Below, piece after piece: positions 25,670 through 42,024 of a stretch of 64,000 nt of DNA. The stretch is taken from the IMG/VR virus record IMGVR_UViG_3300044842_000325, positions 32,001 through 96,000 of that record. The stretch is one strand, 5' to 3'. The notes under the pieces were generated by a model. That model was not told the DNA's origin, did not search any database, and was given only the letters and a program-made list of their open reading frames with translations. Numbering within the stretch: the stretch's first letter is position 1; every line of letters starts with the position of its first letter. This DNA is from a virus. Taxonomy: Duplodnaviria > Caudoviricetes. The position numbers and the translations under genes are program-made.

Positions 25670-27877
25670 TTAAGCAGCGACAGGTTGCGGCGCCAGATAG
25701 AATCCCATGTTGGCCGGGTGCGTCGGACGATACGGCTCCCACGTCATCTCGTAACCGCCGCAAGCCCACACGTGGTTGACAGTTTGCAGACTGCGCGAAC
25801 CATCGAGCGGGATGACGCTGCGGTCGACCGCTTGGAAGATGCGGGTCGGTGCTTCGGCTTCGAAGATACTCCAGCACATGGCTTTGTGGGCTTCCACGCT
25901 GTTGTTGCGGTCGAGGATCTCGGCAGCCGTGAGTGTACCCGAATACGACAACACGATGCGGATTTCCGATTCGCCGTATGCCTTGGTCGGTTGCATGCGA
26001 ATGCGTTCCGAATACTTGTCGGCATTCGAGAGCGTCGCTTGCACCCCGGCGTGTTGACGGCGAGTCGATGCCACAGCTGACCAACTGTCCGCGATCTTCT
26101 CCAGCATGATGATCGACAGCGGCGCGATCCGGATCGGTTCCACCGTGGGTTCATGGATACCCGCAGCGGTTTTGTAAACCACAGGGCCGAAGGTCGGCGG
26201 GTACAGACGCTCGATGTCCGATACCATGTCCTTCAGTTCCAGCTCGTGGTCCGACCGCATGTACAACACCGCGTGGCCTTTGGCCAGGATGTACGACAGA
26301 TGCGAAATCGGCGTCGAGTTGAAGTCACCGTTACGGAACACCGCCGCTTGACGCGGCACCGTGATGTCGTAAAAGCCCAACAGGTATTCCCACGCCCGAC
26401 TCAAGTCTTGTGGGCGCTCACGCTGCACACGCATCAGATCGGTCATGATCACCGAACGACGGCGACGGTCTTCGATTCCCAGAATACGCACGACCTGCTT
26501 GTACATGTCGCGCGCTGCGCCGTTGATGATGTGCTCATACAGGCGACCTGGGATCATGCGGTTATTCACCGCTGCTTGGTCAAAGATCATCTCAGCGCGG
26601 TTGCCATCGGCATCGACCGGCATGTCTTCATCTTCCCAGATGGAGACCACCACCCCTTTACCGCCGAACAGATCGGTGAACTTGTTCCCCATGTTGGGGA
26701 TGATCTTGTTCTTGATGGTAAATTCCATCCGGTAGTCGTCCAAGCGCGTTTTCTTGTGCACCTTCACGACCGTGTTATTGTCCTGGTTGGGGGCCAACAC
26801 CGAGATGGCTTCGATGATCAGGCTGTGCAGTTTCGGTTGCAAGATCGGATCACGACCCAGCAGATGGGTGGTTTGGCGCCACCAATCATACACCCCGCGC
26901 AGGAATTCACGCCGCCCGGCATCGTAACGCAGCGGCTGCGCTTCCATCGGTGCCGGTGTACCCATGATGCCGGTGTTGAAGTCGTGGTGGACTTTGATGT
27001 CGATCACTTCGCCATCGGCACACACCTTTTCATCAAACATGAAGTCGATGCGTTGGCAGGCTTTGACGGATTGCTCAGCAAACACCAGATCCGGTCGGTA
27101 CGAACGCAGCGCCATCAGTACGCCGTCAGGATTGACGCGCTCACCAATGTTCGGGCAGATCTTGTAATTCTCATCGTCACCGTACAGATTAAGTGGGAAC
27201 TTGGTTTGACCGAATTCCACCACCCGACGCTCGAATGTATTGAAGCCAAACTTCTTCAGCGCAGAACGTGCCACCACGATGCCGTCCTCAGCGACATCGG
27301 GTAAACCCATCATGGCCACGTTGATGGTCACACTGAAAGCGTAGTCGACACCGCCATCAGGATCATCGCGGTCCACAATCACCCCGGGTGAATCGCGAAA
27401 CACGGTGTCCTTCTCGATGGTTGCGCCATGTGACAGCTTGGGCATGCCTTCGCGGTCAACGTAACTGAACCCAAGATAAGGGTGGAACGTGCTGTAATCT
27501 GTGAGGCTCACCATCCCGTACTCGTACATTGCGTCCGGTTCCGTGGTCCGGAAAATCGCAACAGTCTCGGGTGGGTTGGTGCGGAATGTATCGTCTCCCT
27601 CCTTCTTGGGGTAGCGGTGAATGATCTTTTCCACGCGCCCCGTGGCCGGCATGCGCTGTGCAAAGGTGGTCTTCGCCAGCAACGTATCCAGACCGGATTG
27701 GATGATGCGCTCTTGCACACCGTCCACCACGACGATCTGACCTAGGTTATTCCCGTACATTTGCTTACGGGATGCGGAAATGGCCGCATTGAAGGGATTG
27801 ATCGCCATGATGCTCTCGCCTTGCGGGAAGTGCTCATTGCGCTGGTAATACGACTTCTTGATATCCCATGATGCCAT
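25670..27877 (-). CDS. Non-virion RNA polymerase beta subunit, C-terminal part (phiKZ gp71-73-like), uninterrupted
   Basis: SASRKQM, AEDGIV, GNKFTDLFGGKGVV, DMP..ADG, NRMIPG and YGESE motifs of RpoB. Confidence 0.9.
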   Translation of the reverse strand: MASWDIKKSYYQRNEHFPQGESIMAINPFNAAISASRKQMYGNNLGQIVVVDGVQERIIQSGLDTLLAKTTFAQRMPATGRVEKIIHRYPKKEGDDTFRTNPPETVAIFRTTEPDAMYEYGMVSLTDYSTFHPYLGFSYVDREGMPKLSHGATIEKDTVFRDSPGVIVDRDDPDGGVDYAFSVTINVAMMGLPDVAEDGIVVARSALKKFGFNTFERRVVEFGQTKFPLNLYGDDENYKICPNIGERVNPDGVLMALRSYRPDLVFAEQSVKACQRIDFMFDEKVCADGEVIDIKVHHDFNTGIMGTPAPMEAQPLRYDAGRREFLRGVYDWWRQTTHLLGRDPILQPKLHSLIIEAISVLAPNQDNNTVVKVHKKTRLDDYRMEFTIKNKIIPNMGNKFTDLFGGKGVVVSIWEDEDMPVDADGNRAEMIFDQAAVNNRMIPGRLYEHIINGAARDMYKQVVRILGIEDRRRRSVIMTDLMRVQRERPQDLSRAWEYLLGFYDITVPRQAAVFRNGDFNSTPISHLSYILAKGHAVLYMRSDHELELKDMVSDIERLYPPTFGPVVYKTAAGIHEPTVEPIRIAPLSIIMLEKIADSWSAVASTRRQHAGVQATLSNADKYSERIRMQPTKAYGESEIRIVLSYSGTLTAAEILDRNNSVEAHKAMCWSIFEAEAPTRIFQAVDRSVIPLDGSRSLQTVNHVWACGGYEMTWEPYRPTHPANMGFYLAPQPVAA

Positions 27878-37283: not shown

Positions 37284-37317
37284 GCCACCTGCTACCCGGA
37301 GGGGTAACAGGTGGGGT
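37284..37317 (-). terminator. Hairpin terminator
   Basis: CCACCTGCTACCC/GGGTAACAGGTGG stem. Confidence 0.6.
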
Positions 37318-37324
37318 TTATGTG

Positions 37325-37954
37325 TTACAACGAATTGCCCGACTTCGAAGTGGGATCAACCATCGACCGCGCCAGCGAGTATTTCATCGACAACCACGTA
37401 TTGATGACTGCGTTTTGCTCAGGGAGGATGAGATGGCGATCGCCCTCCATCAGTTCCTCGATATACGTCACCGATTCCCAGCCGCCGTGCGGATTGTCTT
37501 CCGACGGCTCTTGGATACGAATGACACCGTCCATGACGCGGCGCCAGTTATAGTTGTCCTCACCGTACTGTCCTGGGAACGGATTGGTGAAACCATAACC
37601 TTCGCATCGCCCTTGGTCATACATCTTACCAATGGTGGGTTCGGCCATGATGAAACGCTGCATCACCGGCTGCGCTTGTTGGATCTCGTAGATCGAGGTC
37701 ATTTCCCGGATGCGATCCTCTTGGAAATAACTCTTGACCCGCGAGATACCAACCCGCGCCCGATGCAGTGCTTCATCACTGTAGAGCGAGTGGTAAGCAT
37801 CGACCACACCCTGCGCAAAGGTATTCCCCGTACGCTGAATGTAACTGCCGATCGCCACCGCTTGCTCTTGGATGTACCGCAACATCGAGGGATGGGGCTC
37901 GCCAGCGGTAAAGAGGTTGAGTTCTGCTTCACCGCCGTGAATCAAGCTTGCCAT
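37325..37954 (-). CDS. Conserved Chimalliviridae protein (phiKZ gp59/Imp3-like position)
   Basis: 209 aa with Q.A...MQRFIMAEP, GY and Y..RRVMDG motifs; SD AAGGAG. Confidence 0.5.
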   Translation of the reverse strand: MASLIHGGEAELNLFTAGEPHPSMLRYIQEQAVAIGSYIQRTGNTFAQGVVDAYHSLYSDEALHRARVGISRVKSYFQEDRIREMTSIYEIQQAQPVMQRFIMAEPTIGKMYDQGRCEGYGFTNPFPGQYGEDNYNWRRVMDGVIRIQEPSEDNPHGGWESVTYIEELMEGDRHLILPEQNAVINTWLSMKYSLARSMVDPTSKSGNSL

Positions 37955-37957
37955 GTA

Positions 37958-38032
37958 TTACTCCTTGCGTCTGAACATTTTTTCCAACATTTCAAGAAGG
38001 AGCGGGTGGACGATGCGAGTGGGTTTACGCAT
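37958..38032 (-). CDS. 24-aa micro-ORF MRKPTRIVHPLLLEMLEKMFRRKE
   Basis: Strong SD AAGGAG; fills the gap exactly between its two neighbours. Confidence 0.45.
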   Translation of the reverse strand: MRKPTRIVHPLLLEMLEKMFRRKE

Positions 38033-38034
38033 GC

Positions 38035-38250
38035 TTACTCCTTGGGTTCTTCGTGAATGGCGCAGATCACGCCGTTACCGCCGAATTCGTCCGTGATCTT
38101 GAATCCCGACGGGGGTGGATCGTCCGGGTACAGATTGAGCGGAAACTGGTTCTGACCAAACTCTACCACGCGTTTCTCGTACGTCTTGAAACCGAACTTT
38201 CCGATCTCACTCGATTGGACTATGCCATCTTCTTGCACTACTTGACTCAT
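38035..38250 (-). CDS. 71-aa mini-paralog of the nvRNAP beta-C subunit (two fused DPBB segments)
   Basis: EDGIV...KFGF.T.E.RVVEFGQ..FPLNLY.DD and G.K.TD.FGG.GV...I.E both match 25670..27877; SD AAAGGAG. Confidence 0.75.
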   Translation of the reverse strand: MSQVVQEDGIVQSSEIGKFGFKTYEKRVVEFGQNQFPLNLYPDDPPPSGFKITDEFGGNGVICAIHEEPKE

Positions 38251-38282
38251 GTGTTACTCCTTTCCTCTAGGTATTACACAAA

Positions 38283-39803
38283 CTACGCAGCATCGGGCAG
38301 AGCCATCATTCGTTGGTAGATCACCGGGTCCACAGGCAGAGTAGGTGCCGCCTCGATGAAGTTCGCGGAGGTGGAAATCCACGGTTTGGTTTTCGACAGA
38401 TTGCCCGACAGACTGCGCGGTACCGCGGTACTCATGGTGCTGCGGTATGGTGCCATGGCTTCAAATCGTTCAGCCATGTAATCATCCATCAACAGCGTGA
38501 GGTTCATCTCGTCGCCATCGTAGTCAGCATTGAAGCCGCGCACGATGAGGTCAGACAGCGAGATGGTTTGGTCAGCTGCATCTGGTTTGACTTTGGTGAT
38601 GTACAGCAACTGCATCGAACCCAAGCCCAGCGAGGGATTACGCTGGAAGATCGCGGGCAGACCCCGCAGGCCCGAACCGGCAATCAACTCATGGCGCGAT
38701 TCCGCGATCAATTCCTTGAACAGTTCGTCCAAGAACGGATTGTACTCGGTGGCATACCGGTTGAGGAAACGCCAGACCTCGTTGGGGAGCCAACCGCGGT
38801 CTTTCAGTTTACGCGCCAAATGCAAACGCAGCAAGCCCACGCCCACGCCCCACGGGATGTGCAGTTCGCGGTGATAGTGCTGCACCGGCAGCTTGGTGAT
38901 GACCGCCCGTGCCGACCAGTCGCACCGCGTGGCAGCCAAGTGCTTACGGGAGATGCCCTCCTTCGACGAGAACGACTTCTTGTTGAACTCTTCGTAGTAC
39001 GTGGCCATGTTGGCGATTGCCCGCACCACCCGGTTCTGTTTCACCGCATCGGTGTAGCCATTGAGCGGATCATCCAGACCGATCAGGGATTCGATCGCGT
39101 CGATTGCAATCGGCACGTTCGAGTCGACATACACCGCCATGTCCGTGTCTTCCACCACCAGCAGCAGCTTGTTGGGGAAAGCCAGACGTGACGAGAAGAT
39201 CTTGCCGCGGTTCATCTGCAAGAACTTCAGGATGTGGTGCACCTCGTTCGGGTTGTCTTGCTTCTTCTTACGGAAGTCACTGATGGTGAGCAGCTTGACG
39301 ATGATCTCGTCGAACTTGCGGAAGAAGTTGTTGTAGCCACGTTCGCGGTCAAGGCCGAGCGCCACCAACTGCGCATAGACCTTGGGTGGTTTGTCCGGCA
39401 CCGGATACTTGGTGTCACACAACCATTGGATGATGTTAAATCGCCCTTTCTTGAAGTGATTCGACAGGATCGTCCAGACACGCGGATTGATCAGCGGCGC
39501 GACGTTACGGGGTTGCTTGAGCCACACCATCGATTCCAGTTTCTGGTCACGGATGTTGAGCACAGGCTTGTTACAGTTTTCGCAAATCACCCCGAGATAT
39601 TTGCGACCACGAGTTTCGTTGCAATCGCAACGCGGTGTATTGGAGAGAACGTCGTTGGGCTGGTACCGGGTGAAGATCTTTTCTTTGAAAGCTTTCAGCG
39701 CATCTTTGGAGCAGTCCTGAAATTCGTTAATAATCACAGGGTCGCGATGCGACAGCTGATTCCACAAATCGTCATGGCTGACGAGCCGTAGGTAAGTACC
39801 GAT
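38283..39803 (-). CDS. Non-virion RNA polymerase beta' subunit, N-terminal/catalytic part (phiKZ gp55-56.1-like)
   Basis: CDC...CENC zinc finger, ARAVIT, RNPSL and catalytic NADYDGD. Start proposed at ATC 39803 after SD GAGG (track start is TTG 39767). Confidence 0.92.
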   Translation of the reverse strand: MGTYLRLVSHDDLWNQLSHRDPVIINEFQDCSKDALKAFKEKIFTRYQPNDVLSNTPRCDCNETRGRKYLGVICENCNKPVLNIRDQKLESMVWLKQPRNVAPLINPRVWTILSNHFKKGRFNIIQWLCDTKYPVPDKPPKVYAQLVALGLDRERGYNNFFRKFDEIIVKLLTISDFRKKKQDNPNEVHHILKFLQMNRGKIFSSRLAFPNKLLLVVEDTDMAVYVDSNVPIAIDAIESLIGLDDPLNGYTDAVKQNRVVRAIANMATYYEEFNKKSFSSKEGISRKHLAATRCDWSARAVITKLPVQHYHRELHIPWGVGVGLLRLHLARKLKDRGWLPNEVWRFLNRYATEYNPFLDELFKELIAESRHELIAGSGLRGLPAIFQRNPSLGLGSMQLLYITKVKPDAADQTISLSDLIVRGFNADYDGDEMNLTLLMDDYMAERFEAMAPYRSTMSTAVPRSLSGNLSKTKPWISTSANFIEAAPTLPVDPVIYQRMMALPDAA

Positions 39804-39922: not shown

Positions 39923-41941
39923 TCAGTACACGCGGTTGTGCGTCATGCCGCGGTAGCCCGCGGTGCTGCCGGTGTAGGCCGGGCCGGTCGTGAACATCGT
40001 GGTGTGGAAGTTCGTGGCCAGCGCGCCGGCGGATGCCAGGCCGTACGACGGACGGATGACCATGCGATCGTCGGCATTCGGGATGTCGACTTTCGGCTTC
40101 AGGCCGGTCTGCGAGAACGACACGTCCATGGCGTGCAGGAAGTCCGGGTGGAAGGTCTTGTGGACCGACACGCCCGTCACTTTCGGCAGGACCACCAGCT
40201 CGATCAGCTTCAGACGCTCTGCGAGTTGGTAGTCGGTGCTGCCGCCCCAGGTACCGGCCCAGCGCTTCATCAGGGTCGGATCTTCGTGGCCCTTGGCGTT
40301 CATCAGGTACAGGCCGTCGATGGTGCGCAGGTCACGCACACGGCCTTGGTCGTCCGTGTAGTAACCGTTGAGCACGCGCTCGGACTGCGGCAGCACGATC
40401 AGCTTGCTCTGCGTTTGCAGGAAGATCTGGCTGAAGCGGCCGTCGGTCAGGGCGTCCATCGCATTGATGATCGCCTGACGTGCACCTTCGACTTCGGTGG
40501 CTTCGGCGAACGCGCGCAGGAACCAGGTATCGGCACCCGCCATCGGGACGTCGATCGACAGCGCCGGCGCCGGCTGCATGATCATGCCGACCAGGCGGTA
40601 GAATTCCTCGATACCGAATTCCGGGCTGGTGGTCGGGAATTGCAGCACTTGGTTGCCGTCCAGCTTCAGGCCGTAGTCGTAGTTCAGCGGGCCCAGGTCA
40701 CGCGGACGGAAGTGCTCGCGGCGGCCGCCTTGCGATTGCAGGTGTGCCGGCATGAAGTTGCGCAGCCATTGCGGGCCGTAGGTCTGCTGGTCCAGCAGCG
40801 GCAGCATGGTCGAGATCTGGAGCAGCATGTTGCCCAGGTCCGGTTGCACGCCCATGTCGAAGCCGGACATGGTGATTTCGCCGACGTATTCCTGCGTGTC
40901 GTTGATGCCCGGGGTCGGGCCGCCGACCATGTAGCGGTTGCGGCGTGCTTGCACCGGATCGATGTTGACGGTCACGTAGGCCAGGGTGCGGCCGATTTCC
41001 ATCACACCGGCGGTGTTTTCGGTGCCGTCCTTCTGGTTGCCTTGGCGGGTTTGTTCCGAACGGAAGTCCGTCACGATTTCGCCACGGATCGGCAGGCCAG
41101 CGGCGTCGAACACTTCGAGCGGCGGGTTGGCTTGGTCCTGGTTGAAGTGGATCGAGTTGACCAGCAGGGCCGAGCTGTCGGCAGCGACGTCGGCGAGCGA
41201 TGCGTAGCGGAAGTTGGGGCTCTTGATTTCCAGTTCCGCGTGGCAGGCACGCAGGGCGTTCATGAACAGCGACGCGATCTTGTACGTGTCGTCGATCTTG
41301 AACTCGGCCGGCACGGTGGTCCAGTCCGCCGAGAACACCTGGGCTTGCGGCAGCAGGCTCGTGACGCGCTGACGGATGATCGTGGCCAGCGCTTCGTCAG
41401 CCAGGGCGACCGGGGTACGCGGTGCCGCGACGCGGTCTTGACCGTAGCTGCCGCCGTACAGGTCGTTGCTGCGGGTGGCCGGTGCCGGCGCCATGTCGGA
41501 AGCCAGCAGCAGGGTATGGTACGCGTAGCGGTTGTCGCCCTGGTCGGCCACGATGACGATCATCGCGATCTTGTTGCTGAGGTTCGACTGCGAGCCGCTG
41601 ATCATGCCTTCACGGGGCATCGGGATGATGCGCACGTTCCAGGCCGACAGCGCTGCTTGTTTCTCCTTGTCGTAGAAGTCTTGCAGTTTCTTGGTCAGTT
41701 CGCCCAGGTCGCGGCCGGCGCCGTCCAGACCTTGGTTCAGGCCCGCACCACGGGAGAACAGCGCTGCTGCGCCGATCGGACGATTGCCGCCACCGCCGAC
41801 CGGTGCGCCTTGCGGCTGCTGGTAGTTGGCTTGACCTTGGCCCTGTGCTGCTTGCGCTGCGCCACCGTAGATATCGTTCGGTTGTTGCTGTGCACCGCTC
41901 GGTTGGGCGTTGGTGTTGCCTTGAGCTTGAGTACCTTTCAT
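39923..41941 (-). CDS. chmA: Chimallin, major phage nucleus shell protein
   Basis: About 672 aa, extreme codon bias, early promoter, immediately upstream of nvRNAP beta'-N. LTDG.F, GYY.D..G..RDLR.ID and F.PDF motifs. Start moved to ATG 41941 (SD AAGGA). Confidence 0.88.
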   Translation of the reverse strand: MKGTQAQGNTNAQPSGAQQQPNDIYGGAAQAAQGQGQANYQQPQGAPVGGGGNRPIGAAALFSRGAGLNQGLDGAGRDLGELTKKLQDFYDKEKQAALSAWNVRIIPMPREGMISGSQSNLSNKIAMIVIVADQGDNRYAYHTLLLASDMAPAPATRSNDLYGGSYGQDRVAAPRTPVALADEALATIIRQRVTSLLPQAQVFSADWTTVPAEFKIDDTYKIASLFMNALRACHAELEIKSPNFRYASLADVAADSSALLVNSIHFNQDQANPPLEVFDAAGLPIRGEIVTDFRSEQTRQGNQKDGTENTAGVMEIGRTLAYVTVNIDPVQARRNRYMVGGPTPGINDTQEYVGEITMSGFDMGVQPDLGNMLLQISTMLPLLDQQTYGPQWLRNFMPAHLQSQGGRREHFRPRDLGPLNYDYGLKLDGNQVLQFPTTSPEFGIEEFYRLVGMIMQPAPALSIDVPMAGADTWFLRAFAEATEVEGARQAIINAMDALTDGRFSQIFLQTQSKLIVLPQSERVLNGYYTDDQGRVRDLRTIDGLYLMNAKGHEDPTLMKRWAGTWGGSTDYQLAERLKLIELVVLPKVTGVSVHKTFHPDFLHAMDVSFSQTGLKPKVDIPNADDRMVIRPSYGLASAGALATNFHTTMFTTGPAYTGSTAGYRGMTHNRVY

Positions 41942-42024
41942 GCTTTTTCCTTTTTTATACAAATGTTGTTTAATTTGTTTGCGCAAACAAACTGTTATTG
42001 ATCACTAACCTGGGTGATCATTTT

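Follow-up and report, generated by a model that had tools for sequence, protein, structure and literature searches.

The non-virion RNA polymerase (nvRNAP) of nucleus-forming phages consists of five separately encoded subunits and has no sigma factor. Small phage proteins that bind the host RNAP, such as T7 Gp2, T4 AsiA, and Xp10 P7, are not derived from a polymerase. MicroProteins, a concept that stems from eukaryotic transcription factors, are small single-motif paralogues that form non-productive complexes, LITTLE ZIPPER and the Id proteins being examples; we know of no microProtein example for an RNAP catalytic subunit or in a phage. The RNAP active site lies at the interface of the double-psi barrels (DPBBs) of beta and beta', to which beta supplies two basic residues, the two conserved active-site lysines, and in both cellular and phage enzymes the SBHM, or flap, is inserted in the beta DPBB (PMC7824862). 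Introns and homing endonucleases mediate interference competition between chimalliviruses (PMC11620839), and host immunity can sense a protein encoded beside an nvRNAP gene, JADA, the activator of Avs5, being always encoded downstream of the beta-N subunit gene (PMC12931631).

The locus reported here lies in a 64,000-nucleotide stretch of phage DNA (the window), in which a 71-codon ORF, mini-beta, follows the gene for the catalytic beta'-N subunit. An earlier note, made from the letters of the sequence, had described it as a miniature mimic of the RNAP beta subunit built from two catalytic-barrel segments of the phage's own enzyme. The 71-aa minus-strand ORF was reproduced, and it and its surroundings have the following features.

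38035-38250, minus strand: mini-beta ORF (P0001), 71 aa, identified by BLASTP to beta-C, by syntenic alleles, and by pS above pN
38257-38263, minus strand: Shine-Dalgarno (SD) sequence AAAGGAG, 6 nt 5' of the mini-beta ATG, the same motif standing ahead of all alleles
38119-38238, minus strand: segment 1, mini-beta residues 5-44 (ED motif, helix, strand, and PLNLY strand), a copy of beta-C residues 195-236
38107-38118, minus strand: PPPS linker, which replaces the deleted ~157-residue SBHM ("flap") insert
38047-38106, minus strand: segment 2, mini-beta residues 49-68, the Lys-loop hairpin, a copy of beta-C residues 397-416
25670-27877, minus strand: nvRNAP beta-C gene, 735 aa, parent of both segments (27173-27289 and 26630-26689)
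38283-39767, minus strand: nvRNAP beta'-N gene, homologue of phiKZ gp55, directly upstream of mini-beta
37325-37954, minus strand: conserved 209-aa gene (phrog_3254, function unassigned), directly downstream and the last in a closely spaced chain
37958-38032, minus strand: micro-ORF of 24 codons between mini-beta and the 209-aa gene
39923-41986, minus strand: chimallin (nuclear shell protein) gene (phrog_4795, E 6e-47)

The parent gene is a homologue of phiKZ gp71-73 (PDB 7ogp_C, E 2e-95; Pfam Rpb2_6), and the gene at 38283-39767 encodes a beta'-N with the catalytic Asp triad (7ogp_A, E 7e-81), which agrees with the position directly after beta'-N that had been claimed for the ORF. Chimallin precedes beta'-N and beta'-C follows beta-C in the gene order; the chimallin gene identifies the phage as a chimallivirus, and PF25677 (chimallin) is present in relatives too. 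The only public runs that cover window positions 37300-39800 almost completely are one soil and one rhizosphere DNA metagenome, which may be the source sample; no RNA run was among those listed, which has no bearing on expression.

Descent from two DPBB segments of the phage's own nvRNAP beta-C was upheld by BLASTP, which aligned mini-beta residues 5-57 with beta-C 195-245 (31/54 identical, E 3e-16) and residues 46-68 with beta-C 394-416 (12/23 identical, E 5e-5). The identity counts given in the earlier note (21/27 and 11/20) hold on a hand count, its source coordinates are correct, its strong SD is the AAAGGAG at 38257-38263, and the ~160 residues that it took to have been lost in frame come to ~157 (beta-C 237-393), a stretch that corresponds to the SBHM/flap domain. 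The first active-site lysine is retained in mini-beta (GFK) and the second, as the note had stated, is replaced by asparagine (GGNGV against GGKGV). Segment 2 scored 12.8 bits against residues 380-403 of phiKZ gp71. No further copy of either segment was found in the rest of the 128,846-bp IMG/VR record, which is judged 48% complete.

Mini-beta is thus homologous to the ED strand/helix/strand and the Lys hairpin of nvRNAP beta-C (phiKZ gp71-73, 7OGP chain C, phrog_3295), but at 71 aa against ~700-735 aa it is without barrel strand 1, the SBHM/flap, the last two barrel strands, and the second catalytic lysine. Its match to phrog_3295 (E 6.9e-7) covers profile positions 183-223 of 698 only, and an hmmscan against Pfam-A at E<=1 returned 0 families for mini-beta, whereas the parent (P0002) matches PF00562 (RNA_pol_Rpb2_6) at 1.2e-10. 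Alignment to ~70 beta-C proteins covers the ED strand-helix-strand and the Lys hairpin only and so falls short of a complete six-stranded DPBB, just as the replaced lysine leaves mini-beta short of the two active-site lysines. Since barrel strand 1 and the last two strands are missing, mini-beta cannot close a barrel by itself, and it cannot be a catalytic subunit; the alignments place it as a fragment paralogue of nvRNAP beta-C, not as a full member of phrog_3295 or of the catalytic family.

Structure prediction did not yield a compact autonomous fold for the mini-beta monomer. With a six-row alignment, AF2 gave a pLDDT of 53.7 and no secondary structure; with a 92-row alignment that included ~70 beta-C sequences, it gave a pLDDT of 63.7, a helix at residues 13-18, and a hairpin at 50-53/59-62, and the pTM across both models was 0.15-0.27 (0.27 with 92 rows). 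The modeled helix and hairpin are the local elements expected from the parent, and the predicted lack of a fold of its own is compatible with a partner-dependent peptide. A control-free complex prediction made from the mini-beta and beta'-N alignments gave no support (score 0.01, mark 0.32) and was counted neither for nor against an interaction. The ESM Atlas gave no feature matches for mini-beta, and its structure neighbors are meaningless because its own model has a pLDDT of 0.37.

The earlier note had recognized that the ORF might be recombination debris if it were unique to this genome, near-identical at the DNA level to another beta gene, and untranslated. When viral and metagenome contigs were scanned for relatives of beta'-N, those with a beta'-N 68 to 91% identical to that of the window were found to have a small ORF between beta'-N and the 209-aa gene. 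The slot is occupied in at least twelve related uncultured chimallivirus contigs (L006, L007, L008, L040/41, L043, L123, L124, L125, L126/127, L128, and L132), and the alleles are variable, with lengths of 46 to 103 aa, as the following examples illustrate.

L008 allele: 73 aa, 60% identical to the window mini-beta
L007 allele: 72 aa, 42% identical to the window mini-beta, with a degenerate second half
L006/L042 allele: 59 aa, segment 2 only
L040/L041 allele: 71 aa, with an N-terminal extension, a diverged segment 1, and a stub
L043 allele: 55 aa, ending 16 nt before the next start

L007, L040, L043, L124-L126, and L132 keep segment 2 only in degenerate form or not at all, and L006 and L128 have shed most of segment 1; at the position of the second catalytic lysine, other alleles have Met, Asn, or Cys. 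The similarity of the minis does not track that of the neighboring subunit: the beta'-N of L007 is 91% identical to that of the window, its mini only 42%. L009, with a beta'-N of 71% identity, has no mini, and only 26 nt separate beta'-N and the 209-aa gene; in FLC9 and RP12, the closest cultured phages (~40% beta'-N identity), beta'-N likewise runs straight to the 209-aa gene. Burkholderia, Ralstonia, and Xanthomonas are the hosts of the nearest relatives in culture. The absence of the mini from these three and from all cultured phages searched indicates that it is dispensable.

Several observations mark mini-beta as a genuine protein-coding gene under protein-level selection. Every allele has a consensus SD 6-9 nt ahead of its ATG and an open frame, and the indels among ten syntenic alleles are all in frame. 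The comparison of synonymous and non-synonymous change that the earlier note had proposed gave pN (0.21 to 0.41) below pS (0.62 to 0.87) in every pair with the window (Nei-Gojobori; Fisher p 2e-2 to 2e-11), which amounts to a pN/pS of 0.3 to 0.65 with pS saturated; positive selection was not detected, pN lying below pS everywhere. In the best-conserved stretch, the first codons, the changes fall at third positions. The flanking genes have an omega of 0.04 to 0.17, and the dN of mini-beta is 3 to 5 times theirs, so the constraint on mini-beta is real but relaxed. The positions that are invariant in ~100 full-length beta-C proteins are those that are near-invariant in 21 minis: the E, D, and G of the ED motif, the Gly after the strand, and the P, N, and Y of PLNLY. 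In the ED motif before the barrel helix (E7 and D8 in the window), the E is present in 20/21 minis and the D in 19/21. Thus, alleles occupy the same slot in relatives, near-identity at the DNA level was found with no beta gene, and the codon signature is that expected of a translated gene.

A protein word-index search at similar length returned the query itself alone; this impression of uniqueness was overturned by the scans of loci and by an exhaustive profile search. A six-allele profile run against 1.84 billion representative proteins gave 205 matches at E<=1e-3, mostly full-length beta-C, and about 21 of the best 150 of these are complete ORFs of 46 to 103 aa. Their common core is segment 1; segment 2 is optional, many alleles having it in degenerate form or not at all, so the description of the ORF as built from two segments is right for the window allele but does not extend to the family. 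In the longest mini (P0006, 103 aa), beta-C 171-236, and with it barrel strand 1, is followed by a Pro-rich linker and then by segment 2; the other alleles seem to have arisen from a P0006-like form by in-frame deletion.

The genomic context was examined for ten of these ~21 minis. In L123, L124, L125, L126/127, L128, and L132, which belong to the same broad clade, it was again the slot between beta'-N and the 209-aa gene. In L131, a 46-aa segment-1 mini (2725-2865) lies between a beta-N gene (7ogp_E, E 4e-66; phiKZ gp123 homologue) and a JADA-like gene, the latter identified by a weak match (9rp3_A, E 9e-5). Two ORFs, of 54 and 70 aa, directly precede the beta-C gene in L129 (5001-5397) and L130 (2870-3266). 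The shorter is a copy of segment 1; the longer joins segment 2 to a copy of a conserved motif from the N terminus of the neighboring beta-C (score 53; shuffles reached 48 at most), and the pair in L129 reads as a scrambled set of the most conserved beta-C motifs. L122 (3810-3980) and the P0063 contig have segment-1 minis of 56 and 62 aa, respectively, each embedded in a long run of small genes on one strand and more than 4 kb from any polymerase gene; the small-gene neighbors in L122 gave no PHROG matches.

In the cultured phages searched, every match lay within a gene for full-length beta. The three tblastn searches located a single segment-1 site in each cultured record, so there is no detectable mini in any phage of that collection. 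The mini-beta of the window shares with its family an ORF length of 46 to 103 aa, an SD of its own, a segment-1 core, and a location beside an nvRNAP subunit gene (beta'-N in the window and 11 other loci, beta-N in L131, and beta-C in L129/L130), the last with the exception of the two minis in small-gene arrays. We found no paper on free-standing beta-barrel fragments in jumbo phages, and mini-beta is an undescribed small-gene family built from a known domain.

The fragment is not a recent copy, as the earlier note had concluded from codon usage. Segment 1 has 70% protein identity and 65% DNA identity to the phage's own beta-C, and only 11 of its 28 identical residues share a codon with it, which together mean that synonymous sites are saturated. 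Mini-beta is no closer to its own beta-C than to the beta-C of relatives; with same-codon use at chance level and no preference for the phage's own gene, recent gene conversion from beta-C was excluded. That the ORF is an exon of a fragmented beta-C was ruled out for the clade of the window, in which beta-C is intact elsewhere in the same genomes. When the beta-C of the window (26630-26689 and 27173-27289) was compared with L034-L037 and L002, mini-beta proved to keep the family-consensus states FKTY, GFK, and VIC, which are also those of the other minis and of most chimallivirus beta-C proteins, whereas the clade's own beta-C has FNTF, GNK, and VVV. The beta-C of the outgroup FLC9 reads FKTYE, and the change to FNTF/GNK/VVV in beta-C took place once the clade had separated from FLC9-like phages. 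Ahead of its ED motif, P0006 has residues specific to the clade; together with the consensus states of mini-beta, these date the duplication to the clade's stem. The comparisons therefore identify a partial duplication of beta-C in the stem of this uncultured chimallivirus clade as the apparent origin of the family, with subsequent in-frame trimming to elements proximal to the active site. The minis are not monophyletic on segment 1 alone (41 columns), and for those outside the slot, some beta-C sequences are at least as near as other minis, a pattern that would fit equally well with repeated independent origin or with a star-like history in which the parent evolves slowly.

Interruptions of the polymerase genes suggest where such a fragment may have come from. 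The intron of phiKZ-type beta-C lies at HGG|KGV, in the middle of segment 2 (the phrog_18919/phrog_23982 split), and among other chimallivirus beta-C ORFs, P0013 and P0095 start just before segment 1 and P0045 breaks just after it. In several relatives, beta'-N carries an insertion immediately behind the Asp triad, ~230 bp from the mini, as listed here.

L007, 7350-7586: beta'-N insertion
L008, 7305-8475: beta'-N insertion with a 264-aa ORF
L043, 5396-6738: beta'-N insertion with a 348-aa ORF
L128, 2410-3743: beta'-N insertion with a 342-aa HNH_3 ORF
L124, 3542-3737: beta'-N insertion

These insertions, with or without an endonuclease ORF, are presumably group I introns. The beta'-N gene of the window is uninterrupted, and L006, L040, and L126 have also kept the mini without intron or endonuclease. 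The coincidence of the segment borders with sites of beta-C interruption would make intron-associated recombination a plausible source of the fragment. In this respect mini-beta resembles the exon co-conversion tracts and target look-alikes that group I introns and homing endonucleases leave in phage polymerase genes (PMC11620839), which it recalls also through the HNH-bearing introns in the neighboring beta'-N of several relatives; unlike such tracts or look-alikes, it is conserved as protein, not as DNA, and several of its carriers have no intron nearby.

We suggest, tentatively and with somewhat less than even confidence, that mini-beta is a microProtein-like mimic of the face of the beta barrel and acts on the assembly or activity of nvRNAP. 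The earlier note had proposed a dominant-negative inhibitor, an assembly chaperone for beta'-N, or a decoy. A peptide without a fold of its own would imitate the beta-barrel surface that faces the beta' barrel and so dock on free beta'-N or incomplete nvRNAP; it might hold this surface until the much larger beta-C displaces it, as a placeholder or assembly aid, or it might damp nvRNAP assembly or activity. Because the active site forms where the barrels of beta and beta' meet, the most economical reading is a peptide that mimics the beta face and depends on a partner. Like microProteins, mini-beta is small and related to part of a large multidomain protein, and it appears to have kept an interface element and lost what catalysis needs; its gene is close to, and on the same strand as, that for the parent's partner. 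It would resemble Gp2, AsiA, and P7 as a small phage protein acting on a multisubunit RNAP, but those proteins target the host enzyme, whereas mini-beta is polymerase derived and would act on the phage's own nvRNAP or that of a rival. Links to nvRNAP extend beyond the slot, to the minis after beta-N (L131) and before beta-C (L129/L130). Against the mimic stand the retention of different parts by different lineages, the dispensability of the gene, its fast evolution, and the two copies without a polymerase gene nearby.

The main rival, which we consider rather unlikely, is that mini-beta is a decaying, functionless relic of a beta-C fragment, whose frame is kept open only for translational coupling to the 209-aa gene. 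The stop codon of the mini overlaps the start of that gene (TAATG) in L006, L007, L008, L040, L123, L124, and L126, and the conserved C-terminal K-E-(Q) of the minis is accounted for by the fact that the same codons double as the SD of the 209-aa gene. In the window, the connection is made by the 24-codon micro-ORF, whose SD lies within the last codons of mini-beta and whose own last codons are the SD of the 209-aa gene, both SDs being formed through a AAGGAGTAA repeat. The micro-ORF has a conserved counterpart of 26 codons in L132 (15/24 identical) and is similar to the central part of the L040-type mini (score 44; shuffles reached 34 at most), so that it looks like the relic of a second allele; a match to beta-C 579-595 was borderline (0.8% of shuffles) and was judged weaker than that to L040. 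Readthrough fusion with beta'-N was ruled out by the differing frame and several stops between the genes. Decay would also be in keeping with the lineage-specific in-frame deletions, from the 103-aa form down to 46 to 79 aa, with the complete loss of the mini in L009, with the lack of a predicted autonomous fold, and with a dN several times that of the flanking genes. Thus, mini-beta has the stop overlapping or abutting the next start that is expected of a spacer ORF, but its amino acids do not drift freely (omega ~1): coupling alone would leave them unconstrained, yet pN/pS is well below 1 at saturated pS, and the conserved positions copy those of beta-C. Moreover, the 209-aa gene of L009, FLC9, and RP12 uses its own SD without a spacer ORF, the L043 allele does not reach the next start, and segment-1 minis are found in three further settings in which such coupling plays no part.

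It is less probable still, in our judgment, that mini-beta is a conflict protein, either a poison of nvRNAP assembly in co-infecting relatives, to which the phage's own beta-C and beta'-N would have become resistant by divergence, or a decoy for a host sensor or inhibitor of the active-site surface of beta. We know of no defense system that senses nvRNAP beta. The fast, indel-rich evolution of the minis, their patchy presence in close relatives, and the uncoupling of allele similarity from beta'-N would be expected of such a protein, as would the retention of FKTY, GFK, and VIC where the clade's beta-C has changed; the ~230 bp that separate the mini from the site of intron/homing-endonuclease insertion in beta'-N point in the same direction, as do the interference competition that such elements mediate (PMC11620839) and the sensing of JADA by Avs5 (PMC12931631). 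These points are all circumstantial; L009, which has no mini, shares the derived beta-C states, and the absence of detectable positive selection also speaks against conflict.

The weakest explanation, that ectopic exon pieces of beta-C are by-products of group I introns or homing endonucleases and serve the mobile element as DNA, for example as a target look-alike, draws on the intron site inside segment 2, the beta-C ORFs that begin or break beside segment 1, and the scrambled motif mosaic before beta-C in L129, but is very improbable because ~65% DNA identity with saturated synonymous sites is too low for a nuclease target or recombination donor, because conservation is at the protein level with variation at third positions, and because the window, L006, L040, and L126 keep the mini without a beta'-N intron or endonuclease.

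Returning to the microProtein-like mimic, a broader proposal can be made, which we rate as unlikely: uncultured chimalliviruses may repeatedly have made the same ~42-residue active-site element of beta into free-standing microProteins, encoded beside nvRNAP genes, that gate or poison the assembly of nvRNAP, whether to regulate their own enzyme or to attack that of relatives in the same cell; the owner's beta-C would have diverged where it is mimicked. The carriers so far are uncultured only, and no cultured phage searched has a mini. A selected, polymerase-derived peptide encoded close behind beta'-N would be a natural handle on the assembly or control of nvRNAP, and, if the mimic is real, it would be, to our knowledge, the first microProtein-type mimic of an RNAP catalytic subunit. 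If the conflict reading were true, mini-beta would be a protein-level weapon beside the known intron-endonuclease competition among these phages. Even if it is a relic, the in-frame allele series from 103 to 46 aa shows a gene fragment shrinking under partial constraint.
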